From Patescibacteria group bacterium (lineage in GTDB: Bacteria; Patescibacteriota; Microgenomatia; Levybacterales; UBA12049): 64,000 bases of DNA. Positions 32,704 through 53,395 of the stretch are shown here, one piece after another. Both the position numbers and the translations under genes were made by a program. The notes under the pieces are model-generated. The model did no database searches. It was not told the DNA's origin and was given only the letters and a program-made list of their open reading frames with translations. The stretch covers positions 6,882 to 70,881 of the forward strand of contig DATKGY010000051.1 of NCBI GenBank assembly GCA_035510535.1, given 5' to 3'. Position 1 is the stretch's first letter. Each line of letters opens with the position of its first letter.

Positions 32704-33492
32704 ATGGAAAAATCAAAAAAAAATATGCGCTTTAATAATTTATGTAAAGAAGCATTAGAAATAGAAAATGATAGGCAGAAACTTGCCTCAATGAACGAAT
32801 TCAATTTATTAGCGAGAAAATATAAACCATCCTTGCCGGAGATAAAGAATCTTAACACTTCTAATTTTTGGGACCAAAGGATAGATGAGAAGATTGATTA
32901 TGAGCCAGGTGATGGAATGACTATGGAAAGAGTCAATATTGCCTATAGATTTATGCCAAAAGACGCGAGAAAAGTATTTGATATTGGAGCGGGTTATGGA
33001 TACATAGAAAGATTATTAAGTAAAAACAGTCATATCAAGATTTTTGGCAATGATATCTCTGGAAACGCTGTTAAAAATTTACGAAAAAGATTTGAAGGAA
33101 ATTTCAGACTTGAATCAATTTATTCTATGAAGTATCCAAAGCACTCATTCGACGCAATTTTTGCTTTAGAAGTTTTTGAGCATGTTCCTCCAAGTAAAAT
33201 ATTCAAGCTCATGTCAGATATTAAAAATTTATTGAGAAAGAACGGATATTTAATACTTTCTGTGCCCACGAATGAAGGATTGGAAAAAATGAGAGACAAT
33301 CCCAATGGCCACGTAAGGATGTATACAGAAGCTTTAATAAGCGCAGAATTGAAAATGGCAGGATTTGAGGTTGTTAGCATAAAAACATTGCACGCTTTTA
33401 AAAATTTGTACAGACTCAAAAAAATTATTTCGATGATAACGAAGAACAGATGGAAGCCAAATGATATAATAGTCAAAGCAAGATTTATATGA
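32704..33492 (+). CDS. Class I SAM-dependent methyltransferase
   Basis: Motif I VFDIGAGYGYIE. Post-I and motif II region ALEVFEHV. Confidence 0.7.
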   Translation: MEKSKKNMRFNNLCKEALEIENDRQKLASMNEFNLLARKYKPSLPEIKNLNTSNFWDQRIDEKIDYEPGDGMTMERVNIAYRFMPKDARKVFDIGAGYGYIERLLSKNSHIKIFGNDISGNAVKNLRKRFEGNFRLESIYSMKYPKHSFDAIFALEVFEHVPPSKIFKLMSDIKNLLRKNGYLILSVPTNEGLEKMRDNPNGHVRMYTEALISAELKMAGFEVVSIKTLHAFKNLYRLKKIISMITKNRWKPNDIIVKARFI

Positions 33493-34562
33493 CGATTGTG
33501 TTTTTGGCTAGGAGGTTTTATCCCCAGATTGGCGGAGTAGAGAAGCATGTTCTGGAGGTAGGCAAGCGGTTGGTTAAAAAAGGCCATAAAGTTATCGTCA
33601 TCACGGAACTCGAAAAAAATACGAATGGTCAAAATTATCACTCTGTCTCCAAGAGCGCCAGGCTGACGGGAAAAGTCGCCGGAATCGAAATTTTCCGGAT
33701 TAACGCAGGCGCAAACGACTGGTTTAAGAAATTTCGGGTTTGGAAGCAGCTTTGGAAGCTAAAAAAAATAATCATAAGTGCTGACATTGTCCATTGTCAT
33801 GATGTCTTCTTCTGGTACCTTCCCTTCCGGTTTTTATATCCTACTAAAAAAGTCTTTACAACTTTCCACGGATATGAAGGAAATTCTATGCCGACAAAAA
33901 AAGCAATACTAATGCATAAGCTGGCCGAAAAGCTTTCTCATGGAAATATCTGTGTTGGAGATTTTTTAAAAAAATGGTACGGCACCAGACCAACTTTTAT
34001 AACCTATGGCGCAGTTGATAAAAAATTAATTGCGCAAGGTTCTAAATCTCAAAAACCGACTAAAGACGCGATTTTTATCGGAAGGCTGGAAGAAGAAGCC
34101 GGAATTCTAGAATATCTAAAAGTTTTAACTATTCTGAAAGGAAGGCATATGTCTTTGAGTCTAGATGTTTATGGGGACGGGGTTCTAAAAGATGAGTCAT
34201 TAAATTACTCAAAAAGCCATAATTTGAAGGTAAATTTCAAAGGGTTTGTTAATAGCGCCAGCGACTATATCAAGAATTATGAATATGTTTTTTGTTCAAG
34301 GTATTTAGGTATGCTTGAGGCAATGGCTTTGCAAAAACCGGTTTTTACACAATATAACAATGAGATAAAAAAAGATTATCTGCAAATGGCTCCGTTTGCA
34401 AAATATATTTCAATCACTAGTGATGCGGCTTTAATAAGTAATGCGGTGGAGAATTACATGGGAAAGAAAAATCTGGAAGTTGCACGAGCTTACCTTTGGG
34501 TAAAAAATGAAACCTGGGAGAAAATGGTTAATCTTTACTTAAGACTTTGGAACCGAGCTTAA
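33489..34562 (+). CDS. Glycosyltransferase, GT4-like (GT-B fold)
   Basis: N-terminal FYPQIGGVEKHV and GT-B architecture. Overlaps the upstream stop by 4 nt. Confidence 0.65.
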   Translation: MTIVFLARRFYPQIGGVEKHVLEVGKRLVKKGHKVIVITELEKNTNGQNYHSVSKSARLTGKVAGIEIFRINAGANDWFKKFRVWKQLWKLKKIIISADIVHCHDVFFWYLPFRFLYPTKKVFTTFHGYEGNSMPTKKAILMHKLAEKLSHGNICVGDFLKKWYGTRPTFITYGAVDKKLIAQGSKSQKPTKDAIFIGRLEEEAGILEYLKVLTILKGRHMSLSLDVYGDGVLKDESLNYSKSHNLKVNFKGFVNSASDYIKNYEYVFCSRYLGMLEAMALQKPVFTQYNNEIKKDYLQMAPFAKYISITSDAALISNAVENYMGKKNLEVARAYLWVKNETWEKMVNLYLRLWNRA

Positions 34563-36282
34563 ACCGTTTGCTCAAAAAATATATCAGCGAATAAAGCGTA
34601 ATCAAGATTAAGCTTATGATGCTTATAATTTTAGTTAATTGAAAAAGAAACAAATCTTGATAGGCTATTTTCAAAACTCCTTTCCCCTCCGACAGATTGA
34701 GAGTGATAATTCCATTCTTGTCAGGTTTCAACAAAATCGGCTTTCCGTTTAGAGTCGCTGTCCAGCCGGGAAAGTATAAAGTATTTTCATTCAATTTAAC
34801 CGGTGTTAATGCGTTAATCTTGTAGGTATGCAAAGTTGACGTTCTGGAAATTTCTATAACCTGGGCCTTACCCTGTGTAATTTCAATGTGTTTGGCCGGA
34901 ATTTTTGTAAACCATTGTTGTTTTGGGTTAACCCATTTTGGGAGCGCGTAAAAATGTTCATCTCCCCATTGGTAGCTTAAGGATAAATCACTCCTTAAGA
35001 TAGCATCATTTATCGTCGGTATGACTCTTCGGTTCCCCCAATTAAGAATTGTGGACCCGATGGCCAATAAAATTAGAGCATAGATTATCCATTTCCTTTT
35101 TATAGCTTTTGTAAAATAGCCGGCTAACAAAGACGTACAAAAAGCAACCGGAATTAAAATTCTTTGCGAACCGCTGTCTTTTATGAGAGGGAGATATTTC
35201 CAGATAAAACTAGAATATGGTAAAACAAAGAAAATATAGATTAAAAACAATGTTAACCACAATGCGATTATTTTCTTTGCGCTGCCGGCTCTTCTTCTAA
35301 GCAAAAGTATTATCAATAAGATTACGGTTAGGACTTGAGCGTATCCTAAAAGAAATGAAAGTTCTCCTTTTGGTCCCTGAAATAAAAATCCTAACCGCCA
35401 CGGAGAATATAGGAGATCCGCAATGGTTGGAAAATAAGGTAAATTCGAGGATGGGTGAGTAGATACAAATAGGTAGGGATAGTAGATGAGGGAGGCGGAC
35501 CACTGGAAAAAAGCGACCAATAATGAGATAAAAATAATTGCAAATGAATATAGCGCGGTTTTTGTAAATTGCTTCGCGGTTATGTAGACGTAAAGAATAA
35601 TTGCGGGAATTAGATATACGGCGACTGCAATATGGCTTAAGATTACTAATCCGAGCATTAATCCTGCGAGTAGGATGTAAACGATTTTCTTGCCGTTAAT
35701 AAATTTATGCAGAAAGTAAAAAATTAAGGGAATTAGAGTATAGGCAAGAATTTCTCCGATAGTAATCCGAAAATGGACGTCAATTAAATGATAAGGGGCA
35801 AATAAATAAAAGATTGAAACGGTAAAAGCAGTAAGCGTGTTTTTGAAATAATTCTTAGAGAAGAGGTACATAAACACTCCGGAGAGAAAAATATTTAAGG
35901 CAAGAAAATTTTTTAAGCTTGCGACAAAAGAAAACCCTAGGAAATGAAATAAGGAAATTATGTAGTAGGGAAGGATGTAATTAAAGGCAAATAGGGGATA
36001 GCCATAAGTTGCATTTAGGTCTCCGGCCCATGTTGGAATAACATTACCTTGCGAGAGTAAATTGTAAAACTCCATAGCTCTTCGGATATGCAAATCAAAG
36101 TCGCCGCTTTCGTAAACGCCTGCTCTGGCGATACTAATTATCGGTAGAACAGAAATTACCAGCAGTAAGGCAAATAAATTAATCTTTTTCTTGGGGAAAA
36201 TAAATTTGTAAAATAATGCTCCGCCCAAAACTATTAAAGAGCAAATTAGATTAATAGCTACCATTTGGTAAGGTCCAATCAT
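34528..36282 (-). CDS. Polytopic membrane protein, GT-C-like (PMT/ArnT/YfhO-type) putative glycosyltransferase
   Basis: 584 aa with more than 10 predicted TM helices and a C-terminal soluble domain. Sits in the glycosylation locus. The family assignment is an inference. Confidence 0.4.
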   Translation of the reverse strand: MIGPYQMVAINLICSLIVLGGALFYKFIFPKKKINLFALLLVISVLPIISIARAGVYESGDFDLHIRRAMEFYNLLSQGNVIPTWAGDLNATYGYPLFAFNYILPYYIISLFHFLGFSFVASLKNFLALNIFLSGVFMYLFSKNYFKNTLTAFTVSIFYLFAPYHLIDVHFRITIGEILAYTLIPLIFYFLHKFINGKKIVYILLAGLMLGLVILSHIAVAVYLIPAIILYVYITAKQFTKTALYSFAIIFISLLVAFFQWSASLIYYPYLFVSTHPSSNLPYFPTIADLLYSPWRLGFLFQGPKGELSFLLGYAQVLTVILLIILLLRRRAGSAKKIIALWLTLFLIYIFFVLPYSSFIWKYLPLIKDSGSQRILIPVAFCTSLLAGYFTKAIKRKWIIYALILLAIGSTILNWGNRRVIPTINDAILRSDLSLSYQWGDEHFYALPKWVNPKQQWFTKIPAKHIEITQGKAQVIEISRTSTLHTYKINALTPVKLNENTLYFPGWTATLNGKPILLKPDKNGIITLNLSEGKGVLKIAYQDLFLFQLTKIISIISLILITLYSLIYFLSKRFKLGSKVLSKD

Positions 36283-36286
36283 AACT

Positions 36287-38251
36287 TTATTTTATAGCAT
36301 ATAAGTAATAAGTTGGATATCCATTATAAACCGAAATAAGAGTGTATTTAGAAGAATTACAATTTGTAATACCGGTGTTTTTACAAAACCAGTTGATGTC
36401 CCCGCCTTTAATAAATAGTTTGGTAATCCCCCATTTCTTCAAAGCGGAAAATGACGAACTATTACCGTTAAAGATAAAATTAATATCAATAAACTTAAAA
36501 TTTGCATAATAGTAGCCGAATATTTGATAAGTTGCGACGTAGTCTTCTTTGGAAATATGTTTCGCAAACTTTCCTCCAAAATCGTAATAGCTGGAATTAT
36601 CTCTTAATAAGATTCTGGTCAGATAATTATTTTCGTTGGCAATGCTAAATGAATAAGGCAAGATAAGTAATTGATTAATAAAATAATAAATAAATAAAAT
36701 CAAAAGCACTAAACTTATAAGTAATTTAATCAATTTGAATTTAGAAACTATATTGTAGATTCCCAACGATGCAAGAAATATCAGGGGAATATAAAGCCCG
36801 ATTAGATAACGCCCGTAAATATATTGTGTTATCAGGTAAAAAAGAAATGTTATCAATAAAAAAATGAAAACGTTTAATTTTAGAAACTTCAGGTTATTTC
36901 TTAATCTATAAATTATTAAACATATTCCAATAAAAAACAGCGGACTAAAAACATTAATTAACGAACCAGGATTTAAAAGGTAAAGATTTATGCCTAAATA
37001 GTGAAACAATCCATAATAGTCTTTTTCGTAGCCGAAACTTGTCAGGTTCGTGAAGGCCGGGAATAGAGGATTGCCGGTAAGAATAAACGCTCTTAGAAAC
37101 CAAATAAAGGATGTTACAATTATTCCTGAACAAAAAATAAAAATATGCCTAAGCTTTTGTCTTAAGGGTTCATAAATTGTAATTAATAAAAAAACAATCG
37201 AAACAGGAATAAAGATAATTGTCCAAAGTTTAGTCGAAAGCATTGCTCCTAAGAAAATACCGGACAAAAGATACTCCTTGGTTGATAATTTTTTGCCGTT
37301 TAATAAAATTAGTAGCGAGAGCAATAAGTAAAATACCCACTGAAAGTCTGTGTAGGGGGAGGACGTTTCGTGAATGACAACCGGCGCTGTGGCAAATAGT
37401 AGTGGTACGTAGATAGCAAAACTATAGCCCTTGATTTTGGAAAACTGCAGTAAAGTTAATAAAATAAGTAAGTAAAATGCGAAATGGATATATCTGGCGG
37501 ATTCAACCGACCATAGGAATATGCCGGCCATGTAGGACATTTCGACCATCATCGGGGCGGCTGAAACATGCAGCTGTTCAAGTGGTGGAATCATTATGGT
37601 TTTCTTAGTAAGGTAAATTCGGGGAAAATCGACATGGTATTGGTCTTCCCTGATTTCAGGATTGATTAACGTTACAGAAGCCAAAAATATAAAAAGAGTT
37701 AACCATAGGAACACGAACTTATTAGTTTTTATTTCAAAGATAGCGGTTTTGATAAGAAGTTTTAAGTAAGAAGCTAATTTAAAAACATGGAAAAACGGAT
37801 ATAAGGCAATCAAAGATATGAGTAGAAGATAGGTAATTAAAATAGTGGTCGTGAGCAGCGAAAAAACACCTAGCAGTCCAATCCCCGTACAGAAAAGTAT
37901 ATATCCAAGTCCGATATCAATTAAATAATTAAAATTAGGAAAGTTAATTTTTAAAAGACGACGGATTTTTCCGCCCAATAAGTATGAGGCAACAATCAGA
38001 GCCATTGAAAGAAAAATGCCGGTAAAAAAAGTAATAAAAACACTTAAGTCGGGAAATCCGCCAATATAGTCATGTTTAAGTAAAACTATTCTGGCTAAAA
38101 TATTTGCAGGCAAACTAAAAAGCAACTTATCCAACATTCCTATGTATTCTAAGCTACAAGATGCTATAATTTCAACCATCATATAGAATATGCAAAAGCT
38201 TCGAACAACCTTAATTTGCACGGTACTTAACGAAGAAAAGACAATCGGCAA
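36287..38251 (-). CDS. Polytopic membrane protein, GT-C-like. Start ambiguous (38251, 38182 or 38137).
   Basis: 654 aa, many TM helices, C-terminal soluble domain. The longest ORF overlaps the divergent gene start at 38190, so an internal Met is likely. Confidence 0.4.
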   Translation of the reverse strand: MPIVFSSLSTVQIKVVRSFCIFYMMVEIIASCSLEYIGMLDKLLFSLPANILARIVLLKHDYIGGFPDLSVFITFFTGIFLSMALIVASYLLGGKIRRLLKINFPNFNYLIDIGLGYILFCTGIGLLGVFSLLTTTILITYLLLISLIALYPFFHVFKLASYLKLLIKTAIFEIKTNKFVFLWLTLFIFLASVTLINPEIREDQYHVDFPRIYLTKKTIMIPPLEQLHVSAAPMMVEMSYMAGIFLWSVESARYIHFAFYLLILLTLLQFSKIKGYSFAIYVPLLFATAPVVIHETSSPYTDFQWVFYLLLSLLILLNGKKLSTKEYLLSGIFLGAMLSTKLWTIIFIPVSIVFLLITIYEPLRQKLRHIFIFCSGIIVTSFIWFLRAFILTGNPLFPAFTNLTSFGYEKDYYGLFHYLGINLYLLNPGSLINVFSPLFFIGICLIIYRLRNNLKFLKLNVFIFLLITFLFYLITQYIYGRYLIGLYIPLIFLASLGIYNIVSKFKLIKLLISLVLLILFIYYFINQLLILPYSFSIANENNYLTRILLRDNSSYYDFGGKFAKHISKEDYVATYQIFGYYYANFKFIDINFIFNGNSSSFSALKKWGITKLFIKGGDINWFCKNTGITNCNSSKYTLISVYNGYPTYYLYAIK

Positions 38252-40808
38252 ATTCTTAGATTCAATAGCTAGTCAGTCGAAGTTTCCCAATGAAATAATC
38301 ATCGTTGATGGTGGCTCAGAAGATAAAACCGTACAAAAAATCTCCGAATTTAAATTCCCTTCCGCTACAAGTTTTCCGAACATAAAATTGTTGTTCAAAA
38401 ATGGCAACAGAGCTGCTGGTAGAAATGAGGCAATTAAAAAAGCATCAGGAGAGATAATTTTAATCTCCGATTCGGGGTGTGTTTTAGATAAAAATTGGGT
38501 TAGAAACATTCTGCAGCCGTTCAGCGATAAAAAAACGGATGTCGTAGCGGGATACTACAACGGATTTGCAAAAAATGTTTTTCAAAAATGCTTAATACCT
38601 TATGTGCTAGTGATGCCAGATAAAGTTAATAAGGACGAATTTCTACCGGCGACCAGATCAATGGCTTTTCGAAAACATGTGTGGGAAAAACTTGGGGGTT
38701 TTGATAAAAATCTTTCACACAATGAAGACTATGCATTCGCTAATAAAATTAAAGACGCTGGTTTTAATGTTTGTTTTCAGAAAAGCGCTATTGTTTATTG
38801 GCTTCCGCGGAAGAATATCTTCCAAGCTTTTAAGATGTTTTTTAGGTTTGCTTTAGGAGACGTACAGGCAGGTATCTTTCGCGAAAAAGTCCTCTATATT
38901 TTTTTGAGGTATATTTTAGCAGTTTATCTTTTAATACTAAGTTTTATTGAAAAATCTTTGTTGCCTAGTTTATTTTTAATACTTAGTTTGGCAGGCTATA
39001 TCAGTTGGTCGGTTTGGAAAAACTATAAATATGTTAAAGATCCCAAGGCGCTCATTTACTTACCCCTACTGCAGTTTACGTCCGATTTAGCGGTAATTTT
39101 GGGTTCAACTTTAGGTCTACTGCAAAAAATCTCGCTCAAAGCCTTGCGCAGTTTAATACTTAACAACAAAGGGGTGTCTTTAATAGTCGCATTATATATA
39201 GTATCGATGCTGGCTGTAATTACGTATGGAATTCCCAGCCCGTCTCATCCGTTTGATTATTTTATGGATGAATGGCATCAGTCGCAGTCGGTGCGTAATC
39301 TTTTCACATTGGGTACTCCAAATGTAACGGGTTCGGCCAATGGTTCAATCTTCCAGTTCTTTCTTTCCGGATTATATTTAATTCCTTTTTACGTTTTGCA
39401 TATCGTGAATCCTTTTGCCATAAAATCTTCGGTGTTAAATCTTGAAATGCAATCCAGATTGTTCGAGATATTCAAACTTAATACGCTTCTTTTTGGCGTC
39501 GCATCAATATCGCTTATCGCCTACATCGTCAAGAAATATGGCAAAATAGCGCCATTTTTGGCGGTTTTCCTATTTACCGTTAATCCGATTTGGCTGATGT
39601 TAAGTAATTATTTTAAATATGATATTGCTTTAATCTTTTGGAGCTTAATGTCGTTTTTATTTTTCGTCAGATATGCCGTAAAGCCTAATTTTACGGATTA
39701 TCTATTAGCCGGAATCTTTACCGCGCTAGCATTATCGACAAAGTTGCTAAGCCCTATGCCTTTATTTATCGTTTATATCTTAATCTTCTTTTTGTACACG
39801 CCCGACCTAAGAAAAAAGCTCAAAACTTTATTTGTTGGAATCGTTGCGACCATTTTTATTTTTTCCGCATTTGGGATTCCCGACGTAATTTTAGGAAGGG
39901 GAAGTTTATACGACTACCTTTATGCGAATCTTGTGCAAACGCCTATCTCTAACACTGCTAATTTTATTTTGGGGATGAATTATGAATGGTATTTTTTGAC
40001 AAAACTTTATCCGACAATTTTTGGTCGTGTCCTGTACGGATTGTTTTTGTTTTCTTTAGTTTGTGGTTTAATCGTAATTTTTCAGAAAGCTTTGCAAACG
40101 CGTTCGTTTTTATCGCTTAAAACATGGGCGCTTGAGAAAAATAAGCTGGGAACCTTAGCATTCCTGACATTTCTAATTTTCGCTGTCAGTTTGTATCCGC
40201 TAAAAGTTGAGGCGACCAACAACCGGGTTCTGGTTTTATTACCTTTTATGGTAATTATGGTAGCTTTGTTTCTAAATCACATTTGGTGGTGGTCAAAGAA
40301 TAAATTTGTAAAAGGTGCACTGATAATACTCGTAATTATCCTGCTCGGAATCCAATTCGCAGAAAGTTATTCATGGTTTCCCATAAAACTAAGCGCCGAT
40401 CCTAGGCAAACTTCTTCTAGCTGGATTATCCAAAATTTCCCCAAAGGAACATTAATTGGGATTGAGAATATTCCAATTTATCAACATCTCCCAAACATAA
40501 TTTTAAAAGAGTTCTATCTAGAACAATATGGGGTAGGAATTGACGCAAATTTTAAATATAATGTTATCAATAGTAGGAGTGCGTTTTTGCCTAAGGTTTT
40601 GGTAATAACCAATGATGAGTTGGAGAAGTCTTATTTGCGAAAATCCGATAAAACAAATTTGGTTAACAGGTTAAAAAACAATGGATATAAAGTTATCGTA
40701 CGGTTTAAGCCTGACTTTAAGTATTTCAAGATTTTTAATGATGAATTAGAATATTACATGTCAGGACTTGTCCAAGCGCCTAATACAATTTCCATTTATG
40801 AAAAATAA
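38190..40808 (+). CDS. Fusion protein: N-terminal GT2 glycosyltransferase plus a C-terminal polytopic GT-C (PMT/ArnT-like) domain
   Basis: GT2 motifs CTVLNEEKTI, IIIVDGGSEDKT, ISDSGC, NEDYAF in the first 230 aa or so. About 640 aa of TM-rich GT-C-like sequence follows. Confidence 0.6.
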   Translation: MQKLRTTLICTVLNEEKTIGKFLDSIASQSKFPNEIIIVDGGSEDKTVQKISEFKFPSATSFPNIKLLFKNGNRAAGRNEAIKKASGEIILISDSGCVLDKNWVRNILQPFSDKKTDVVAGYYNGFAKNVFQKCLIPYVLVMPDKVNKDEFLPATRSMAFRKHVWEKLGGFDKNLSHNEDYAFANKIKDAGFNVCFQKSAIVYWLPRKNIFQAFKMFFRFALGDVQAGIFREKVLYIFLRYILAVYLLILSFIEKSLLPSLFLILSLAGYISWSVWKNYKYVKDPKALIYLPLLQFTSDLAVILGSTLGLLQKISLKALRSLILNNKGVSLIVALYIVSMLAVITYGIPSPSHPFDYFMDEWHQSQSVRNLFTLGTPNVTGSANGSIFQFFLSGLYLIPFYVLHIVNPFAIKSSVLNLEMQSRLFEIFKLNTLLFGVASISLIAYIVKKYGKIAPFLAVFLFTVNPIWLMLSNYFKYDIALIFWSLMSFLFFVRYAVKPNFTDYLLAGIFTALALSTKLLSPMPLFIVYILIFFLYTPDLRKKLKTLFVGIVATIFIFSAFGIPDVILGRGSLYDYLYANLVQTPISNTANFILGMNYEWYFLTKLYPTIFGRVLYGLFLFSLVCGLIVIFQKALQTRSFLSLKTWALEKNKLGTLAFLTFLIFAVSLYPLKVEATNNRVLVLLPFMVIMVALFLNHIWWWSKNKFVKGALIILVIILLGIQFAESYSWFPIKLSADPRQTSSSWIIQNFPKGTLIGIENIPIYQHLPNIILKEFYLEQYGVGIDANFKYNVINSRSAFLPKVLVITNDELEKSYLRKSDKTNLVNRLKNNGYKVIVRFKPDFKYFKIFNDELEYYMSGLVQAPNTISIYEK

Positions 40809-45383: not shown

Positions 45384-46493
45384 ATGAAGATTGCGGTATT
45401 CCATGAGCTTCACAAAGGCGGCGCCAGAAGAGGGACAAACGAGTTTGCTCATCAATTAAAAAAACGGGGGCATACGGTAGACTTATTTACAGTTGATAAT
45501 ATAATCGCAGAGGAAAAAGAATTTTATAATAAAATTAACGTTTATAAATTCAAGCCCGTTATCTGGAAAGGGCACGATTGGAGGAAAAAGCTTTATAAAG
45601 ATACGGTTGAGCTTTTTAAACTTTTTTTGCTGGACAGGCGGATAGCAAAAGATATAAACCAGAGGAAGTATGATCTAGTCTACGTCGCGGCTTCTCAATA
45701 TATCGAATCACCATTTATTCTTCAATTTTTAAAACAACCCACTTTTTTCTATTGCAACGACCCTTATTACAGAATTATTTATGAGCTGGAATTATTTCAC
45801 AAAGATAATCTCAATTTTCTAAAATTAAGATATGAATTTTTAAATAGATTTATCAGAAAGTATCTTGACCGCTGGAATATTGGTAAAGCAAAATATATTA
45901 TCGCCATTTCAGAATTTTCAAATCAATTATTTTACAACGCTTATAAAAGGAAGGGAGACGTTGTCTGTTATGGCGCGTATACTTCATTTTTTGTTCCTTC
46001 TAAAAAAGAGAAAAATATAGACATTTTATTCATTGGTTCTGCCGATGAGCTTGACGGTTACCCGCTTTTTAAAGAAATTATAAAGAAAATGAAATATAAG
46101 GTAAAATCCAAAGTAGTACTGTTTGAGAAAGAATGGTTAAACGATAAAGAGCTTTTGGATGTTTACCAAAGAAGTAAAATACTAATCGCTCTGGCACACA
46201 AAGAGCCTTTTGGGATGGTTCCTTTGGAGGCGATGTCCTGCGGAGCGATCGTGGTTGCCGTAAACGAAGGAGGACACAAAGAAACCATTAAGAACCATGA
46301 AACAGGGTTTTTGATTGAGAGAGACGCAGTTAAATTTGCTAAAAAAATTGATTGGCTATTGGAAAATCCGGATATCGTCAGGAAAATGAGTAGAAATGCC
46401 AGGCGGGAAATGATAAAGAACTGGGATTGGGATAAAAAAGGTGAGGAGCTTGAAAAATTATTACTAGATAAATTACATGGGTTACAAAACTAA
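45384..46493 (+). CDS. Glycosyltransferase GT4
   Basis: C-terminal EPFGMVPLEAMSCGAIVVA (E-x7-E region). Internal ATG 45384 is preferred over 45288, which overlaps rfbC. Confidence 0.7.
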   Translation: MKIAVFHELHKGGARRGTNEFAHQLKKRGHTVDLFTVDNIIAEEKEFYNKINVYKFKPVIWKGHDWRKKLYKDTVELFKLFLLDRRIAKDINQRKYDLVYVAASQYIESPFILQFLKQPTFFYCNDPYYRIIYELELFHKDNLNFLKLRYEFLNRFIRKYLDRWNIGKAKYIIAISEFSNQLFYNAYKRKGDVVCYGAYTSFFVPSKKEKNIDILFIGSADELDGYPLFKEIIKKMKYKVKSKVVLFEKEWLNDKELLDVYQRSKILIALAHKEPFGMVPLEAMSCGAIVVAVNEGGHKETIKNHETGFLIERDAVKFAKKIDWLLENPDIVRKMSRNARREMIKNWDWDKKGEELEKLLLDKLHGLQN

Positions 46494-47706
46494 AGCAATT
46501 AAAAGCGTTTCATGGATGGGAGCGCTCAATATATCGACTAGAATTATCAGCTTGGTTAAGTTTATGATAATTGCCAGGCTTTTGGTTCCGGCCGATTTGG
46601 GAGCGTTTGGTTTGGTCGTATTTATAGTTGGCGTTGCTGAAGTTTTCTCGGAACTAGGAATTCAAACATTCCTTATTCAATACAAAAAGAACATCAATAA
46701 ATTTATTGATTCCGCTTGGATTCTACAGATTATCAGAGGTGTCGGGCTATTTATAATAGTTGCACTTTTGGCATTTCCTGCTTCTTTATTTTTTAGACAG
46801 AGTGTTTTGTTTCAGCTAATATTATTAGGGGCATTAGTACCTTTGATAAAAAGTTTTGAAAATACTTATGTCATAAATTTTCAAAAGGAATTACATTTCC
46901 ATAAACAGTTTTTTTACAATTTAATAATTGTCGTTTCTGATTTTTTGGTTTCGGTGACATTGGCAATTATTCTTCATTCAGTGCTGGCGTTGGTTCTGGG
47001 TTTGGTACTTTCTTCTTTGGTGGGAATTATCTATTCATGGGTAGTTTTAAAAACCAGACCGAAAAGAAGTTTTAATCGGGAGAAAATTGGCGAGATTTTA
47101 CACTATGGAAAATGGATAAATATCAATAGCGTTATTTACTATACGATTACACAGATGGATACATTATTTATCGGACGGCTTTTAGGAACATCTGTTCTTG
47201 GGTTATACCAAGTTTCCCAAAATTTTTCTTATACTCCCATGCAAGAAGTCGCCGATGTGGTAGGACAGGTAAACTTTCCGGTTTATTCAAAAATTGCCGG
47301 CGATATCCAGAGGTTTAAAAAAGCTTACCTTAAAGTTGTCAGCGCATTATTTTTAGTGGAATTGGTAATCGGAATAATATTATTTGTTTTTTCCAGAGAA
47401 TTAATTTTACTGTTTTTAGGTAGTAGATGGTTGTCCGGAGAATCAATCTTTAGAATATTTGTTGTCTATGGTTTTATTTATGCGTTAGTTGGTACCAACG
47501 GCGCCTTTTTCCTATCAATTGGCAAACAGGCTTTCCTTACTAAGATAAATATTATCAGGATTTGTATTCTTATTCCGCTGATGTTGATATTAATTCATTT
47601 ATTTGGAGCAGTTGGTGCGGTTTACGCTTTTATAATAAGCCTTTTGATTATTGCGCCGATTTCTATTTTTAATACCGTTAAAGTGCTTACATCTGAATCA
47701 AAATAA
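46477..47706 (+). CDS. Polysaccharide/oligosaccharide flippase (Wzx, MOP superfamily)
   Basis: 409 aa, about 12 TM helices. N-terminal KSVSWMGALNISTRII is typical of the Wzx family. Confidence 0.65.
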   Translation: MGYKTKAIKSVSWMGALNISTRIISLVKFMIIARLLVPADLGAFGLVVFIVGVAEVFSELGIQTFLIQYKKNINKFIDSAWILQIIRGVGLFIIVALLAFPASLFFRQSVLFQLILLGALVPLIKSFENTYVINFQKELHFHKQFFYNLIIVVSDFLVSVTLAIILHSVLALVLGLVLSSLVGIIYSWVVLKTRPKRSFNREKIGEILHYGKWININSVIYYTITQMDTLFIGRLLGTSVLGLYQVSQNFSYTPMQEVADVVGQVNFPVYSKIAGDIQRFKKAYLKVVSALFLVELVIGIILFVFSRELILLFLGSRWLSGESIFRIFVVYGFIYALVGTNGAFFLSIGKQAFLTKINIIRICILIPLMLILIHLFGAVGAVYAFIISLLIIAPISIFNTVKVLTSESK

Positions 47707-47707: not shown

Positions 47708-48589
47708 ATGATTAAAGTTTCAATTATTATTGTCAATTACAAAGTAAAAGAGAAACTGCTTGTTTGTCTAAAATCTATTTATGATTCAAAACCTCAATCA
47801 AGCTTTGAGATTATGGTGGTTGATAATGACGAAGTCAAAACGATTGAAAAAGATTTGAAGAGACGGTTCCCCAAAGTAAAATATATAAAAAGTTCGAAAA
47901 ACCTTGGGTACGGCGGGGGAAATAATCTGGGCGCAAAATACGCCAAAGGGGAGTATCTATTTTTCCTAAATCCAGATACATTGGTTTTCAAAGATACGAT
48001 AGATGAACTGGTTAGCTTTCTTTTCAAAAATAAAAACGTTGGTATTATCGCTCCGCTTCTCATAGATAAAAATAAAATACCTTTTAAGCTGCAGGGAACA
48101 ACGGAACTAACGCCATTAAAAGGAATCATATGTTTATCATTTATTGAAAAATTGTTTCCGAATAATCCAGTATCTAAAAATTATTGGTTGAAAGAGTGGA
48201 GCCATCAGACACTAAGGGAGGTAGGAGTTTGTCCGGGTACGGCTTTGATGGTACGTAGAGACTTATTTAGGAAGATAGGCGGTTTTGACGAAAGATTCTT
48301 CTTATACTTTGAGGAAGATGATTTGGCAAAACGAGTCAGAACGCAAGGATACAAAATATACATCACGCCAAAGTCAAAAATATTCCATGAAATTGGTGTA
48401 AGCACTAAGCGGTTTAGGAATGCGAAGGAGGTTTTCTCTAGGAGTAGATTTAGATATTTCAAGAAACATTACGGTATTTTTAGCGCCTTATTGGTTGAGT
48501 CATTCTTGAGTATTAATAAATTGTTTTTATTCTTATTTTTCATACTCTTTCTGGCTTCATTGTTGGTAATTATGACGTATAATAAATAA
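47708..48589 (+). CDS. Glycosyltransferase GT2
   Basis: VSIIIVNYK, MVVDNDE, GYGGGNN, EEDDL. ATG 47708 is preferred over 47651. Confidence 0.75.
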   Translation: MIKVSIIIVNYKVKEKLLVCLKSIYDSKPQSSFEIMVVDNDEVKTIEKDLKRRFPKVKYIKSSKNLGYGGGNNLGAKYAKGEYLFFLNPDTLVFKDTIDELVSFLFKNKNVGIIAPLLIDKNKIPFKLQGTTELTPLKGIICLSFIEKLFPNNPVSKNYWLKEWSHQTLREVGVCPGTALMVRRDLFRKIGGFDERFFLYFEEDDLAKRVRTQGYKIYITPKSKIFHEIGVSTKRFRNAKEVFSRSRFRYFKKHYGIFSALLVESFLSINKLFLFLFFILFLASLLVIMTYNK

Positions 48590-48590: not shown

Positions 48591-49364
48591 ATGCTTAGCG
48601 TTATTATTCTTACAAAAAATGAGGAAGAAAATATACTAGATTGTCTGGAAACTGTCGGTTGGGCAGACGAGATTATCATCGTCGATGATTACTCGGAAGA
48701 TAGAACAGTTGAAATAGTTAAAGCGCAAAACCTTAAGAACTTAACGATTCTAAAACGGGAACTGGTTGGTGATTTTGCTAAACAACGAAATTATGCCTTG
48801 TCTTACGCCAAAAATGAATGGGTATTATTTATTGACGCTGACGAAAGGATATCGCCAAAGCTTAGACAAGAAATAAACGATTTTATAATTGAGGAAAAAA
48901 GCCAGCCGCTTTTTAATGGAATGTATATAAAAAGAAAAGATATCATGTGGGGAAAATTATTGAAGCATGGAGAGACAGGTAATATAAAACTATTAAGATT
49001 AGCCAGGAAAGATGCCGGAGCGTGGCAGGGTAAAGTTCATGAACAGTGGGTAGCGGAAGGGGAGACAGATATATTTGAAAATCACTTAGTGCATTATCCT
49101 CACCAAACAATTTCGGAATTTTTGTCCGAGATAAACTTTTATACAACTATTAGAGCCAAAGAGCTACAGAGCGGCGGAGAAAAATCATCCATTTTTAAAA
49201 TCATTTTTTACCCGAAAGCCAAATTCGCACAAAACTACTTTCTTAGATTAGGTTTTCTAGACGGAATAGAAGGTCTAGTGCAAGCAATCTTAATGAGCTT
49301 CCATTCTTTCTTGGTGCGCGCTAAGTTATGGACTTATTTAGACAAAAAACAGTTAAATGGTTAA
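48591..49364 (+). CDS. Glycosyltransferase GT2
   Basis: LSVIILTKNEE, IIIVDDYSEDRT and IDADE motifs. Confidence 0.75.
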   Translation: MLSVIILTKNEEENILDCLETVGWADEIIIVDDYSEDRTVEIVKAQNLKNLTILKRELVGDFAKQRNYALSYAKNEWVLFIDADERISPKLRQEINDFIIEEKSQPLFNGMYIKRKDIMWGKLLKHGETGNIKLLRLARKDAGAWQGKVHEQWVAEGETDIFENHLVHYPHQTISEFLSEINFYTTIRAKELQSGGEKSSIFKIIFYPKAKFAQNYFLRLGFLDGIEGLVQAILMSFHSFLVRAKLWTYLDKKQLNG

Positions 49365-50500
49365 AGGGGAATTGGGTACTTTTAGTCATATCCGTATCAG
49401 GATTAGTCCTAAGATTATTAGGACTAATTAACATCCGGCTAGCGGGGGACAATGTTATTTTTTGGTCTGCCGCGCGGTCAATAGTTGAAACGGGAAAACT
49501 TCCTTTACTTGGTCCAAGTGCCAGTGTTAACGCGAATTTTCATCTAGGGCCCGCTTATTACTATTTTTTAAGTATCCCTTACTTTCTAGGCAGCGGTAAT
49601 TTTAATTTCGCGATTGTTTTCTCCGCAGTAATTAACTCTTTTTCTATCCCGCTTTTATATTTAGTTTCGAGGAGTTGGTTTTCAAAGGGCGATAGTTTAA
49701 AAATTACAGCTCTTTTTGCCTTCAGTAGTTATATTGTTTCTGTACAAAGTTTTCCTTGGAATCCATACTTTCTTCCATTTCTAATCATTTTGTCTTTATA
49801 TTTCATAGTTAAGATAAACGAAAAGAAGTATTTTTTCTTTCCTTTATTGTGTATGGTTTGGGGCATTTCAATACAACTGCACGCTACGGCCCTATTTTTG
49901 TTGCCGGTTTTTGCATATTTACTGCCGCTTAAAAAAATTTCAGTCAAACAATATTTATTAGGATTAACAGCGTTTTTAATAGTTAATTCTTCCTGGCTCT
50001 ATGTTAATCTAACCACAAACTTTAGTCAGATGAAGGAAGCAATTCTAATATTTTCGTCAGGACCAACCGGCAATTGCACTTTTTCGTATTGGTTATTAAA
50101 TCATGGGCATGGAGAACGTTGTTTCGCATACCTAAGGAATACTTTATTCGCTTTCAGGTTTATGACAATGAGTTTATTCAATTCCGAAAATATGATTTTA
50201 GTTTTTTCGGCAATGATTATTACAATTTTATACTTTATAAAAGCTCAGATGTCTGAAAAGAAAATACTTCTGGTTTGGCTAGGCATTCCTATTGGTTTAT
50301 TTTTGTTTTATTCTTCAGGAATTTACCTGCATTATTTTTTGATACTTACGCCATTGCCATTTTTTCTGTTAGTAAAATTATTAGCAAAGCTTAATAAATT
50401 CGGACGAAAGGGAATACTTTTAGGTAAAGCAATTATTATTCTGACAATAATACTTAACATTGTAGGATATATTTATTCTTTGCAGTTTATAAGAGGATGA
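49328..50500 (+). CDS. Polytopic membrane protein, GT-C-like (ArnT/PMT-type), putative
   Basis: 390 aa, TM-rich, in the glycosylation locus. Family inferred. Confidence 0.4.
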   Translation: MDLFRQKTVKWLKGNWVLLVISVSGLVLRLLGLINIRLAGDNVIFWSAARSIVETGKLPLLGPSASVNANFHLGPAYYYFLSIPYFLGSGNFNFAIVFSAVINSFSIPLLYLVSRSWFSKGDSLKITALFAFSSYIVSVQSFPWNPYFLPFLIILSLYFIVKINEKKYFFFPLLCMVWGISIQLHATALFLLPVFAYLLPLKKISVKQYLLGLTAFLIVNSSWLYVNLTTNFSQMKEAILIFSSGPTGNCTFSYWLLNHGHGERCFAYLRNTLFAFRFMTMSLFNSENMILVFSAMIITILYFIKAQMSEKKILLVWLGIPIGLFLFYSSGIYLHYFLILTPLPFFLLVKLLAKLNKFGRKGILLGKAIIILTIILNIVGYIYSLQFIRG

Positions 50501-50585: not shown

Positions 50586-52208
50586 ATGTTTGCCTTAGCA
50601 ATTTTGATTGGTATTTATTCCTATCTTGTTTTTTCCTTGGGAATATTTGGTTTACTCAATCTGTCTGCCGTTTTGCTGACGACCGTTATCTATTTTTTAA
50701 TTTTGACAATTCTCTATCGGCAAAAATTCAAGTTTACATTGAGAGATCTTAGTATTGAAAAGCTGACGGTTTGGTTTAAGAAAAATAAGCTATTCAGTTT
50801 TGTTGCATTAATAATTTTAATTCAGGCATTAATCAATTTAATTGGAGTTTTAGGGCCAGAAATCTCTTTTGACAGCCTCTGGTATCATCTGACACTACCG
50901 AAATTATACATTGCCAGCGGGCACATTTTCCATATTCCGGGTTCAAGTCTTTATTATTCGGATGTGCCAAAGCTGACGGAAATGCTTTATACCTCGGCAA
51001 TGATTTTTAGCAACGATATACTGGCTAAGTTAATCCATTTTTCTTTTGGAATATTGATATTAGTCGCAATTTATAAAATCTCCCGCAAGTTTATGTCAAA
51101 AGAGTTTTCAGTATTGGCTGTAGCAATATTTTACGCCAATTTGGTCGTCGGCTGGGAATCAATAACGGCTTACGTTGATCTTTCAAGGACTTTTTTCGAA
51201 ATAATGGCACTCTGGGGATTTTTAAATTGGTTTGAAACAAAACAGAAGAAATGGTTGGTTATTTCAGCCGTAATTTTGGGATTGGCTGTTGCAGCCAAAT
51301 TGATTGCTGTGTTTTCCTTGCTAATATTTTTGGTGTTGTTTATTTACAAAAAGTTTTTACAAAAAGAAAAATGGTTGGTTGTAATCAAAAATTATTTAAT
51401 TTTCTGCTTTATGACAATTCTAATTCCATTGCCATGGCTTATTTTTTCCTATCTAAACACGGGTAATCCGTTATATCCGTACTTTACCACTCAATTGGCA
51501 GATTCGGGAATGACATTGGTTTTGCCCAACCTATTGAATTTCTTCGGTGATTTTTATAATTTTTTCTTAAGACTTAATGACCCGATTACGCCAATTTATC
51601 TAATTGTCCTGCCATTATTTATTTTAGGATTCAAAAAATTCAATTTCAGAGTTAAAACTTTGGCAATCTATGCAATGCTCGCCCTAATTATCTGGTACCT
51701 GACGGAGCAAGTCCGGGGAGGAAGATTCATCTTGCCTTATTTGCCGGTATTCTCTATTCTATCCGCTTACGTAGTTGGAAAAGTGCAGATGCGGAACTTG
51801 CGGATGTTTCTGGTCGGCGTTATCATTTTCGTCGGTTTAATTTCAATCGGATATAGGGGAATTGCCAACGCTAAGTTTGTGCCGGTTATTTTAGACAGAG
51901 AAACCAGGCCTGAGTTTTTAACAAAATACTTAAACTTTTCTTTCGGAGATTTTTACGATACCGACAATTATTTCCGGAATCACTTAACCAAAAATGATAC
52001 GGTACTCTTGTACGGTTTTGGCAGGCTTTATTATGTAGATTTTAACTTCATTGATTCAAGTTGGGTTAAAAAAGGCGACCGCTTTGATTATGTCGCGGTC
52101 CAAGACGGCGTACTTCCGCAAAGATTTTCCGATTGGCGGGAAATCTATTATAATAAGCTAACCAAAGTAAAATTGTATACAAAAGAAGGCCAACAATGGG
52201 TTTACTAA
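50586..52208 (+). CDS. Polytopic GT-C-like glycosyltransferase (PMT_2/ArnT-type), putative
   Basis: ATG 50586 is preceded by aaaggagg; the ORF-track TTG start at 50571 is less likely. TM-rich with a C-terminal soluble domain. Confidence 0.5.
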   Translation: MFALAILIGIYSYLVFSLGIFGLLNLSAVLLTTVIYFLILTILYRQKFKFTLRDLSIEKLTVWFKKNKLFSFVALIILIQALINLIGVLGPEISFDSLWYHLTLPKLYIASGHIFHIPGSSLYYSDVPKLTEMLYTSAMIFSNDILAKLIHFSFGILILVAIYKISRKFMSKEFSVLAVAIFYANLVVGWESITAYVDLSRTFFEIMALWGFLNWFETKQKKWLVISAVILGLAVAAKLIAVFSLLIFLVLFIYKKFLQKEKWLVVIKNYLIFCFMTILIPLPWLIFSYLNTGNPLYPYFTTQLADSGMTLVLPNLLNFFGDFYNFFLRLNDPITPIYLIVLPLFILGFKKFNFRVKTLAIYAMLALIIWYLTEQVRGGRFILPYLPVFSILSAYVVGKVQMRNLRMFLVGVIIFVGLISIGYRGIANAKFVPVILDRETRPEFLTKYLNFSFGDFYDTDNYFRNHLTKNDTVLLYGFGRLYYVDFNFIDSSWVKKGDRFDYVAVQDGVLPQRFSDWREIYYNKLTKVKLYTKEGQQWVY

Positions 52209-53395
52209 AAGCATTATTTATCATTTTTCTTCTGGCTTTTCCGGTTACGGAAGTTGGTAGAGTACCATTACCTAATGGGGTGGCGTTCTCGCTCAATGAC
52301 ATTCTGCTTGTCGCTGTAATTTTGGTTTGGTTGGGAAGCCACATTTTAAAAAGACGAAAGTTTGTCTTCGGAAAATTAGGTAAACCAATTGTTGTCTTTT
52401 CCGTGATTGGATTAATGTCTTTGTTGGTTAATCTTCCCAGCTTAGGCGTCAATAATTTATTTATATCGTCACTTTATTTGGTGCGTTGGGTTGCTTATGC
52501 CCTTATTTACGTTATTGTTAGCGAGTTTGAACCGAAGTTCAAAAACAAAATCTCTTATTGGTTGCTTTTCTCAGGTTCTATTGTTATTTTTTTGGGTTAT
52601 GTTCAATATTTTTTCTATCCAAACCTACGGAACCTTTTCTATTTAGGGTGGGATGTGCATCTTTACCGGATGTTTTCCAGTTTCCTGGATCCTAATTTTG
52701 CCGGAGCATTTTTTGTTTTATTCTTTATATTTTCTTTGGTTCTTGGTTTAAAACATTTCAGAAAAAAAGAGAATTTCAAGTCAGGAATAATTTTTCTTAT
52801 CGCTATCACCGATTTTATAGCAGTTTATTTAACGTATTCCCGCAGCGCGTTAATCATGCTCATCGTGACGGTTGTAACGTATCTAATAGTTCAAAGACAA
52901 AAAAGATTAATTGTAGCAGCAATAATTGGGTTAATCGCAATTATTTTCTTCCTACCAAAATCTTTTACCACCGAGGGAACAAATCTATTAAGAACCGCTT
53001 CCGGTGTTGCGAGGATAGAATCGCTGCAAACCGGCGTCAAGATCTTCCAACAAAGTCCTATTTTAGGAGTTGGATTTGACGCTTACCGCTATGCCCAGCA
53101 TAAGGTTGGACTAAATAGTCTTTATTGGCAAGTAATCCATTCGGGTGCGGGAACGGACAACGGCTTCTTGTTTATCCTCGCCACAGCGGGAATAGTTGGT
53201 CTGGCGGCTTTTTTGTACATATTGTTTAGTATTTTTTCGCTCGCAAAACAAAACCTCAAGAAAAATATTTATGCAGTGGTACTTTTTTCGGGACTGGCGG
53301 GACTAATCATTGACGGACTTTTCGTGAACAGTTTGTTTTACGTTTTGATTCTGGAGTGGGTATGGATTTTAAGTTCGCTTACTGAGAAAAGTTAA
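52196..53395 (+). CDS. O-antigen ligase / Wzy_C-domain membrane protein
   Basis: TYSRSALIMLIV...periplasmic loop...HSGAGTDNGFL is typical of the Wzy_C family. Confidence 0.65.
   Translation: MGLLKALFIIFLLAFPVTEVGRVPLPNGVAFSLNDILLVAVILVWLGSHILKRRKFVFGKLGKPIVVFSVIGLMSLLVNLPSLGVNNLFISSLYLVRWVAYALIYVIVSEFEPKFKNKISYWLLFSGSIVIFLGYVQYFFYPNLRNLFYLGWDVHLYRMFSSFLDPNFAGAFFVLFFIFSLVLGLKHFRKKENFKSGIIFLIAITDFIAVYLTYSRSALIMLIVTVVTYLIVQRQKRLIVAAIIGLIAIIFFLPKSFTTEGTNLLRTASGVARIESLQTGVKIFQQSPILGVGFDAYRYAQHKVGLNSLYWQVIHSGAGTDNGFLFILATAGIVGLAAFLYILFSIFSLAKQNLKKNIYAVVLFSGLAGLIIDGLFVNSLFYVLILEWVWILSSLTEKS

Follow-up and report, generated by a model that had tools for sequence, protein, structure and literature searches.

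The 64-kb stretch of DNA analysed here (the window; G+C content approximately 37%) stems from a contig of a Patescibacteria group bacterium and carries, at positions 32704–53395, a dense glycan locus of approximately 21 kb placed between the genes for a signal peptidase and tRNA-Val and the ATP synthase operon. Genes were assigned by comparing the open reading frames (ORFs) of the window with Pfam, NCBIfam and the sequences in the PDB. The locus encodes an S-adenosylmethionine (SAM)-dependent methyltransferase, two GT4 glycosyltransferases, three GT2 domains, a GT2 resembling dolichol-phosphate mannose synthase (DPMS) and ArnC, a sugar C-methyltransferase, RmlC, a Wzx flippase, a Wzy_C-domain protein, and five proteins with a GT-C fold. 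An earlier note, made from the sequence of the window, had described this span as a glycosylation locus with five GT-C-like paralogues, possibly acting on proline/threonine-rich (PT) linkers of secreted proteins. All ORFs on which it relied were recovered at or within a few codons of the same positions, and the families it had named for the genes of this span were borne out by the Pfam, NCBIfam and PDB matches. The genes are, in order:

32704..33492, plus strand: SAM-dependent methyltransferase (Pfam Methyltransf_23/11/25)
33489..34562, plus strand: GT4a, cytoplasmic GT-B glycosyltransferase (Pfam Glyco_transf_4 and Glycos_transf_1)
34528..36282, minus strand: GT-C protein A (Pfam PTPS_related 3e-11, PMT_2 borderline)
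36287..38182, minus strand: GT-C protein B (homology to E; NCBIfam LIC_10190 family 3.5e-7)
38190..40808, plus strand: fusion protein C, GT2 and GT-C (Pfam GT2 1.7e-21, PMT_2 4.7e-9)
40798..41514, plus strand: DPMS/ArnC-like GT2 of 238 amino acids (PDB 5mlz 3.3e-20, ArnC 2e-8)
41511..42725, minus strand: NDP-sugar C-methyltransferase (Pfam Methyltransf_14 4.9e-48, Methyltransf_13 2.3e-13)
42862..44529, minus strand: AAA+ ATPase, IetA-like (Pfam AAA 1e-34; PADLOC IetA 2e-40)
44779..45309, plus strand: rmlC, dTDP-4-dehydrorhamnose 3,5-epimerase (Pfam 1.3e-66; NCBIfam rmlC 198.6 bits against a cut-off of 155.75)
45288..46493, plus strand: GT4b, cytoplasmic glycosyltransferase of the variable core (Pfam Glycos_transf_1 4e-26)
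46477..47706, plus strand: Wzx/MOP flippase of the variable core (Pfam Polysacc_synt_3 7e-64; NCBIfam MOP flippase 2.8e-54)
47708..48589, plus strand: GT2x, rhamnosyltransferase-like GT2 (Pfam GT2 1.2e-20; NCBIfam rhamnosyltran 5e-15, below cut-off)
48591..49364, plus strand: GT2y, cytoplasmic GT2 (Pfam GT2 1.6e-20)
49328..50500, plus strand: GT-C protein D (PF13231 on homologues; AlphaFold2 and Foldseek)
50586..52208, plus strand: GT-C protein E (Pfam PMT_2 27.5 bits, PMT 23.2 bits)
52196..53395, plus strand: Wzy_C-domain protein (Pfam Wzy_C 7e-17)
53379..54098, minus strand: membrane-anchored Ig-like protein (Pfam Glucodextran_B 2.4e-15)

For comparison we used related metagenomic contigs and loci, designated L003, L005 and L084 to L092 (L004 duplicates L003); the European Nucleotide Archive contig L092 carries a protein 100% identical to A. 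A scan of a genome collection with the alignment of D led almost exclusively to metagenome-assembled genomes of Patescibacteria; the organism, an uncultured and ultrasmall bacterium, is probably Levybacteria-like.

The five large polytopic proteins, A to E, are all members of the GT-C superfamily. As PDB searches by sequence gave no solved relative for the membrane part of any of the five, fold prediction was needed. AlphaFold2 (AF2) models were made for D and A; the assignment of B is based on its homology to E, and those of C and E are based on Pfam. D is a minimal GT-C of 390 amino acids that consists of membrane helices only. It has no Pfam match itself, while most of its 59 homologues carry PF13231. 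Its AF2 model, built from 41 sequences, had a mean pLDDT of 92.6, and the top 38 Foldseek matches were all GT-C enzymes (AglB/STT3, ArnT, ALG9/12/3, Pmt4, PimE, AftA, Emb), with ALG3, ALG12 and PimE as the size-matched structural neighbours. The model of A (pLDDT 85) gave EmbC, STT3, Pmt4, PglB, ArnT and AftD as top Foldseek matches. A comprises a PTPS_related/YfhO-like transmembrane bundle, an outer beta-sandwich (residues 466–541) that resembles C-terminal domains of glycoside hydrolases according to Foldseek, and a final transmembrane helix; the C-terminus has a weak Pfam match to YfhO, and translation possibly starts at ATG 36264. More than 560 homologues of A were found. B is composed of a transmembrane bundle and a C-terminal soluble domain and has no Pfam match. 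Its start is probably ATG 38182, the listed TTG at 38251 making it too long, and the orthologue on the identical contig L092 is annotated as 631 amino acids. E likewise has a transmembrane bundle and a C-terminal soluble domain of approximately 115 amino acids; its ATG at 50586 follows a GGAGG ribosome-binding site, and it is 64–73% identical to its counterparts in L003 and L005. In C, a cytoplasmic GT2 (residues 1 to approximately 230) is followed by membrane helices and a GT-C module (approximately 330–725) with the PMT_2 match at residues 432–557, and a soluble domain forms the C-terminus. Hydropathy is not decisive for the linker that joins GT2 and GT-C (residues 233–347), and its topology is a prediction. 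More than 400 full-length homologues of C exist at 46–83% identity, and those with a name come from Candidatus Levybacteria or 'Patescibacteria group bacterium'.

The note had made its proposal depend on an acidic signature in the first loop of these proteins, and the signature was present in all families. D41 is invariant in the D family. In the A family E58 and D61 are near-invariant (≥90%) within the motif Y-E-S-G-D-F, accompanied by invariant Y57, S59, G60, F62 and H65. Across the orthologues of B and E, E176, D180, Y182 and H183 are invariant within P-E-x-x-x-D-x-Y-H, and the first outer loop of C contains invariant H353, P354, F355, D360, E361, W362 and H363 within H-P-F-x-Y-x-M-D-E-W-H. 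The GT2 part of C retains invariant D40, D45, D94, E179 and D180. Hydropathy and the models place the first loop on the membrane's outer side. Given the GT-C folds, the conserved acidic residues in the first loop and the DPMS/ArnC-like synthase encoded alongside, transfer of sugars from polyprenol-phosphate-linked donors at the outer face is the expected chemistry.

The description of the five proteins as paralogues stood as far as the common superfamily is concerned; close paralogy holds for B and E alone, which are 27% identical over 516 amino acids (E=1e-32). Among the five, BLASTP related just B to E (1e-31) and B to C (4e-6). Alignment of profiles by hhalign connected the D family with the GT-C module of C at 96% probability (E=3e-9) and, less strongly, with A (79%). 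The five thus fall into three or four distinct families at the least and are not five close paralogues. E passes the PMT_2 model (27.5 bits) and the PMT model PF02366 (23.2 bits against a cut-off of 22.7), both just above the cut-off, and some homologues of C carry precomputed matches to PF02366. PMT_4TMC was detected in none of the five, and the GT39 Pmt architecture of PF02366 plus PMT_4TMC does not occur among them.

The earlier note had interpreted 40798–41514 as a Dpm1/ArnC-like polyprenol-phosphate sugar synthase. Homology to DPMS and ArnC indeed extends over the full GT-A domain, the closest solved relatives being the DPMS of P. furiosus (5mlz; 3.3e-20, residues 15–242) and ArnC (2e-8), and the protein is a predicted synthase of this type; its scores lie below every cut-off of the NCBIfam models ArnC, AglJ, PgfS and PpgS. 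In relatives it is conserved at 68–89% identity. It lacks a transmembrane helix, and no small membrane ORF, such as would encode a partner like GacJ or WpsB, adjoins it. Its gene overlaps the 3' end of C by 11 nt, and the polytopic fusion C may be the membrane partner of the DPMS-like GT2. The N-terminal GT2 of C was also considered as a DPMS-like enzyme, which was not supported: its best matches are TarS-like and TIGR04283/MftF-like and, weakly, PDB 6yv7, an entry deposited simply as 'Glycosyl transferase, family 2'. GT2y was rejected as a second DPMS-like donor synthase, serving D, since its best solved relatives are GmaR (5e-14), SunS (3.5e-10) and TarS (2e-9) and not DPMS or ArnC. GmaR is a flagellin O-GlcNAc transferase and SunS an S-glycosyltransferase; the likeness of GT2y to them may reflect merely the general GT-A fold. 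GT2y overlaps the start of D and is 71–80% identical to its counterparts in L003 and L005.

At the left end of the locus, the stop codon of the SAM methyltransferase gene overlaps the start of GT4a. The methyltransferase, seen only in the close relatives L084, L086 and L092, is by its family a probable glycan O-methylation enzyme. GT4a is convergent to A and overlaps it, and the two form the pair that is kept most widely; GT4a is 52–83% identical in L084–L088 (tblastn), and a PDB search with it gave just one marginal match, to a digalactosyldiacylglycerol synthase. The C-methyltransferase consists of a Zn-ribbon, a methyltransferase domain and the C-methyltransferase C-terminal domain and is kept in L003, L005, L084 and L090. 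Members of the TylC3/KijD1-type C-methyltransferase family lead to 3-C-methyl-6-deoxyhexoses, and by analogy the presence of this gene together with rmlC implies such a sugar as the putative product. The gene rmlC opens a long plus-strand operon, in which GT4b starts at TTG 45288 or at the in-frame start codon 45384 and GT2x, with one C-terminal transmembrane helix, at ATG 47708. The Wzy_C protein showed a weak match to the NCBIfam repeat-unit polymerase model (4e-4) and no solved relative in a PDB sequence search; judging from its domain, it may act as polymerase of repeat units, as ligase, or as O-oligosaccharyltransferase like PglL. O-oligosaccharyltransferases of the PglL/WsaB type share the Wzy_C domain, and sequence cannot separate them from polymerases and ligases. 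The Ig-like anchored protein is the convergent last gene that closes the locus and occurs in L003, L005 and L089 at 62–88% identity; it might serve as a chain-length or assembly factor.

The AAA+ ATPase at 42862–44529, whose gene lies within the span given in the earlier note, was rejected as a member of the glycan pathway: it matches IetA-like defence ATPases, no such gene stands in this slot in relatives, and tblastn gave zero matches in the related loci. The NCBIfam match to IetA is below the cut-off, no IetS protease adjoins, and the gene stands alone. The slot itself, between the C-methyltransferase gene and rmlC, is empty in L005, L084 and L090 and is occupied in L003 by a 503-amino-acid secreted protein with a PT linker; it looks like an accessory-gene insertion site within the glycan locus.

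The locus is syntenic and resides at a fixed chromosomal site in L003, L005, L084, L086, L089, L090 and L091, where the shared gene order is valS, rodA, L21, L27, parB, signal peptidase, a variable slot, GT4a, A, B and C, up to the Wzy_C protein, the Ig-like protein and the ATP synthase. According to the tblastn matrix, A, B, C, GT4a, the DPMS-like GT2, the C-methyltransferase, RmlC, E, the Wzy_C protein and the Ig-like protein are 58–89% identical among relatives, and D is 55–58% identical. In contrast, Wzx and GT4b share only 33–37% identity with relatives (tblastn; GT4b 33–34%, Wzx 37%), and their order is swapped compared to L003, L005 and L084, while the genes flanking them are 70–89% identical in the same relatives. 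By this pattern Wzx and GT4b constitute a serotype-like replaceable cassette. A conserved frame around a divergent Wzx/glycosyltransferase core is the usual mark of surface-polysaccharide loci under diversifying selection. A second difference concerns GT2x, at whose place the relatives (L003 7094–9271, L005 7090–9267, also L089, L090 and L091) carry a GT2–GT-C fusion of 725–731 amino acids. GT2x is 70% (L005) and 50% (L003) identical to the first 270 residues of this fusion; the window has of it only the GT2 part and a single transmembrane helix, and the reading frame stops 2 nt short of the following gene. The GT-C part that is absent has a paralogue in D, and the strain therefore carries one GT-C fewer than its relatives.

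On a wider scale, full-length homologues of A and of C number in the hundreds across Patescibacteria (45–83% identity). The more distant L085, L087 and L088 keep the GT4a–A(–B–C) module and lack the right arm of the locus. In L088 (519–21743), the A-family GT-C is accompanied by a YfhO protein, a PMT protein, another PMT_2 protein, a 238-amino-acid DPMS-like GT2 and amino-sugar genes, and this cluster directly adjoins mraY-ftsW-murG-ftsA-ftsZ, so that the GT-C family is physically linked to the cell-wall synthesis cluster. In L085 (19334–21755) and L087 (9231–15437), a sortase and a SpaA-repeat surface protein of 2174–2527 amino acids are encoded a few kb from the GT4a-A-B-C module.

We propose, with moderate confidence, that the locus directs the stepwise assembly of a polyprenol-linked glycan and that the product is a cell-envelope glycopolymer, as in Gram-positive loci for rhamnose-containing cell-wall polysaccharides (Rha-CWPS) and secondary cell-wall polysaccharides (SCWP). 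In this monoderm Patescibacteria bacterium, the end product would most likely be a polysaccharide associated with the wall, or a lipoglycan, one part of which would vary between strains. From the gene identities, the GT-C folds, the conserved residues of the catalytic loops, the synteny and the mosaic conservation, we infer an order of steps, the sugars, the donors and the acceptor as follows. The cytoplasmic GT4 and GT2 enzymes, including the GT2 domain of C, would build an oligosaccharide on the polyprenol carrier from nucleotide donors, using sugars that would include a 6-deoxy or 3-C-methyl hexose provided through RmlC and the C-methyltransferase; the SAM methyltransferase would add O-methyl groups. 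The ORF scan, which covered window ORFs of at least 120 amino acids and locus ORFs of at least 100, gave neither a phosphoglycosyl transferase nor a GtrA protein, and MraY, encoded in the dcw cluster, was the sole polyprenol-phosphate transferase recognised; the gene of an initiating enzyme could be located elsewhere in the genome. As the locus has no such enzyme, the DPMS-like GT2 may start the chain on polyprenol monophosphate, as WpsA and GacI do, and it may also make polyprenol-phosphate-monosaccharide donors. Wzx would flip the lipid-linked glycan. At the outer face, each of the five GT-Cs would be responsible for one particular sugar or linkage, which it would add or transfer from polyprenol-phosphate-sugar donors, and the Wzy_C protein would polymerise or ligate the repeat units. 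The acceptor of D is probably lipid-linked, since D consists of membrane helices only, like the ALG and PimE enzymes. ALG3/9/12 and PimE use a lipid-linked donor as well as a lipid-linked acceptor. A, B, C and E, which have outer soluble domains, probably work on the growing polymer or carry out the final transfer. The fusion of a rhamnosyltransferase-like GT2 straight to transmembrane helix 1 of a GT-C would be sensible if both halves share one lipid-linked intermediate. A glycan or lipid as acceptor is further favoured by A, which has a beta-sandwich of a type common on carbohydrate-active enzymes and fold matches to Emb and AftD. Five or six GT-Cs in one locus are typical of glycopolymer assembly, as for mycobacterial arabinogalactan (AG) and lipoarabinomannan (LAM), and not of bacterial protein O-glycosylation.

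Models made up of the same components are known from Gram-positive bacteria. For the polysaccharide pellicle (PSP) of L. lactis, the DPMS-like GT2 WpsA (WpsA/B) starts the repeat unit on C55-monophosphate and cytoplasmic glycosyltransferases extend it; a Wzx-type flippase exports the product, after which a polymerase and a GT-C ligase polymerise or attach it outside (PMC10821137). As the DPMS-like WpsA is the initiator in that pathway, a locus free of a dedicated initiator fits this model. Similar to the cwps/PSP locus of L. lactis and the group A carbohydrate (GAC) locus of S. pyogenes (PMC10821137, PMC9574508), the locus in the window combines a DPMS-like GT2 for charging polyprenol monophosphate, elongation by GT2 and GT4 enzymes, a Wzx-type flippase, a polymerase, outside-acting GT-Cs, an rml gene, and a conserved frame with a variable serotype-like core. 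It differs from Rha-CWPS loci in that no rhamnan ABC transporter, TagO-type initiator or LCP protein was found in the window and all matches are below the family cut-offs, in its number of GT-Cs (five, and six in relatives, compared to one to three), in its GT2–GT-C fusions and sugar C-methyltransferase, in lacking a small partner gene like gacJ or wpsB, and in its Patescibacteria host. With multi-component transmembrane glycosylation systems such as CsbB/GtcA/YfhO, GtrB/GtrA/GtrC and GacI/J/K/L (PMC8035078), it shares a GT-A polyprenol-phosphate-sugar synthase plus a polytopic GT-C with an acidic motif in an outer loop, Pfam signatures of the PMT_2 or YfhO type, and the joint encoding of synthase, flippase and GT-C. 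Unlike in these systems, no GtrA-family protein occurs among the scanned window ORFs and Wzx is the only flippase; moreover, several GT-Cs share one synthase, and the GT2 fused to one of the GT-Cs has its best match outside the DPMS-like enzymes. PMT_2-type GT-Cs of Gram-positive bacteria mostly decorate lipoteichoic acid, wall teichoic acid, Rha-CWPS, and the Wzx/Wzy-made SCWP of B. anthracis (PMC8035078). The locus further resembles eukaryotic and archaeal lipid-linked-oligosaccharide (LLO) synthesis and the mycobacterial assembly of phosphatidylinositol mannosides (PIM), lipomannan (LM), LAM and AG in its GT4-type cytoplasmic steps, MOP-family flippase, DPMS and series of far-side GT-Cs, D being like ALG3/9/12 and PimE in size and fold and A like Emb and AftD in its sugar-binding-like beta-sandwich. 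This likeness is at the level of the fold only (TM-scores 0.3–0.58, 10–16% identity), and in contrast to the LLO pathway no oligosaccharyltransferase of the STT3/AglB type was identified by sequence.

Several observations weigh against an envelope glycopolymer as the product. The Wzx flippase and a Wzy-type domain are present, but the same ORF scan of window and locus gave neither an LCP wall-attachment enzyme nor a chain-length regulator, whose genes could likewise be located outside the window. The best solved relatives of GT2y, GmaR and SunS, are protein or peptide glycosyltransferases, and the Wzy_C family also takes in protein O-oligosaccharyltransferases. At NCBIfam, rmlC alone reaches the equivalog level and no transferase of the locus does; as the matches to named enzymes other than RmlC are far below the curated cut-offs, the locus belongs to no characterised orthologous group and shows no orthology to any studied system. 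Finally, secreted proteins with PT linkers recur beside or inside the locus in three independent gene families. The one that adjoins the locus in the window is:

30715..32640, minus strand: anchored protein with a ConA-like domain, a PT linker of approximately 33 amino acids and a Peptidase_C39_2 domain (translation, Pfam)

Protein O-glycosylation of PT linkers as the main function, with the GT-Cs transferring monosaccharides from polyprenol-phosphate-sugars to Thr or Ser, or alternatively with the Wzy_C protein transferring a Wzx-flipped oligosaccharide en bloc in the manner of PglL or WsaB, is possible, albeit unlikely in our judgement. The glycan would then shield the linkers from proteolysis. 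The GT-C folds with their conserved outer-loop acidic residues and the DPMS-like synthase would suit this chemistry, and a direct monoderm precedent exists in streptococci, where a GT-A undecaprenyl-phosphate-sugar synthase plus GT-C (GtrB+PgtC2; PgfS+PgfM1/M2) O-glycosylates Ser/Thr-rich disordered regions of exported proteins and thereby protects them from proteolysis (PMC12041528). This precedent is closer than the actinobacterial one put forward earlier, and the hypothesis is mechanistically sound; as in these systems, a donor synthase and GT-C transferases are encoded near candidate Thr/Pro-rich linkers of exported proteins. E and many homologues of C also touch the Pfam PMT model. On the other hand, none of the five has the GT39 architecture, PMT_4TMC being absent and the PMT match at threshold only; the PgfS model gave 47 bits against a cut-off of 500; a complete Wzx/Wzy-type route is present; the substrates are candidates; and known bacterial systems use one or two GT-Cs instead of five or six (PMC12041528 for Pgf and PgtC2).

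Three long PT linkers had been claimed for the window, with one of the proteins directly abutting the locus. PT linkers do exist, and 30715–32640 does adjoin the locus; a long linker is found in this protein alone, while 15122–15850 has an interrupted PT stretch of approximately 24 amino acids and 19918–21195 two short ones, and the neighbour is kept in close relatives only. It occupies the variable slot beside the locus, with orthologues in L084 and L086 (79–83% and 71% identity on A), whose PT linkers of 43–45 amino acids show that the linker is retained over a range of 33–45, and on the identical contig L092; the slot lacks it in five of the nine related genomes sampled (L085, L087, L089, L090, L091). 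In 1.41 Mb of fetched Patescibacteria loci, five ORFs passed the strict PT-run definition, and each of them belongs to the close clade and lies within or next to this locus: two are the C39 orthologues of L084 and L086, two the 503-amino-acid secreted protein of L003, whose gene sits between those for the C-methyltransferase and Wzx, and its copy in the duplicate locus L004, and the fifth is a small anchored protein 3 kb from A in L085. The fetched flanks of L005, L087, L088, L089, L090 and L091 contained none, and approximately 78 other Patescibacteria loci centred on D-like GT-Cs were essentially without PT-run proteins nearby. As all fetched DNA of the clade is centred on the locus, with no same-clade background, this co-location cannot be called an enrichment, and it may reflect merely a habit of the clade to use PT linkers. 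Two of the three proposed substrates, 15122–15850 and 19918–21195, are moreover cargo of a probable integrated element. Thus, with no GT39 enzyme among the five GT-Cs, a patchy PT neighbour and two of three candidates on a probable mobile element, PT linkers as the acceptor were not supported.

The element in question (12071–23705) lies between ftsZ and valS and encodes a tyrosine integrase (phrog_1, 2e-51), helix-turn-helix regulators, a ClpP-like SDH protease-family protein and a VirD4/TrwB/HerA-like ATPase (phrog_5156, 3e-81), and its G+C content varies between 0.32 and 0.50; the genes of the two PT-linker proteins stand between those of the integrase and the ATPase. A 27-nt direct repeat, 93% identical, at 12033–12059 and 13074–13100 (spacing 1041 nt) brackets the integrase gene alone and could be an att- or dif-like site or a duplication. 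The other parts of the window carry valS, rodA/ftsW, parB, a signal peptidase gene, two tRNA genes, an F-type ATP synthase operon, dnaE, and one further cluster:

104–11859: dcw cell-wall/division cluster (mur ligases, murA, mraY, ftsW, murG, ftsA, ftsZ)

Two further accounts were weighed against assembly of a single envelope glycan. The site may house two pathways, which we regard as distinctly improbable. The left arm (GT4a, A, B, C, the DPMS-like GT2, the C-methyltransferase) would then make a lineage-wide housekeeping lipoglycan or glycolipid, comparable to mycobacterial PIM/LM/LAM, where GT4 enzymes prime and GT-Cs elongate from polyprenol-phosphate-sugars, and the right arm, from rmlC to Wzy_C, would make a Wzx/Wzy surface polysaccharide of its own that varies between strains and is decorated by the GT-Cs D and E. 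Such a division is in line with the wide distribution of full-length A and C homologues, the persistence of the GT4a–A pair without the right arm in L085, L087 and L088, the organisation of the right arm as a single plus-strand operon with the divergent Wzx/GT4 core, and the position of the accessory slot (the AAA ATPase here, the secreted protein in L003) exactly between the arms. Yet the arms are adjacent in at least seven related contigs, there is one DPMS-like donor synthase for five GT-Cs, and rmlC and the C-methyltransferase, which plausibly share one nucleotide sugar, are split between the arms. Alternatively, a Levybacteria-like clade may possess a stepwise lipid-linked-oligosaccharide pathway like that of the endoplasmic reticulum (ER), comprising GT4/GT2 cytoplasmic steps, a MOP flippase, DPMS, a series of outer-face GT-Cs, and GT2–GT-C fusions that couple an inner-face to an outer-face step, with the product moved to Thr/Pro-rich linkers of exported surface proteins; we consider this rather unlikely.

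The working logic of the proposed envelope-glycan pathway is already known: it is that of multi-component transmembrane glycosylation plus a Wzx/Wzy-type route, as in the lactococcal and streptococcal Rha-CWPS loci. Distinctive are the number of GT-Cs, the lineage-wide GT2–GT-C fusions, the helix-free DPMS-like enzyme translationally coupled to such a fusion, the gene for a C-methyl sugar, and the phylum. Our literature searches found no study of these genes, of glycosylation or envelope glycans in Patescibacteria (Candidate Phyla Radiation, CPR), or of GT-A/GT-C fusions, and to our knowledge nothing is known experimentally about the envelope glycans of Patescibacteria. The GT2–GT-C fusions would be compact enzymes for studying how glycosylation at the inner and outer face of the membrane is coupled. 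If protein linkers were the acceptor, the range of GT-A/GT-C O-glycosylation of disordered regions would come to include the CPR besides Firmicutes and Actinobacteria, and if the ER-like transfer to proteins were true, a general, strain-variable O-glycosylation would shape the surface of these episymbionts toward hosts and phages. The surface of Patescibacteria contacts the host cells on which these bacteria depend. The fixed site, the conserved frame, the hundreds of homologues of A and of the GT2–GT-C fusion, and the serotype-like core make this locus a good candidate for the clade's principal determinant of surface glycans.

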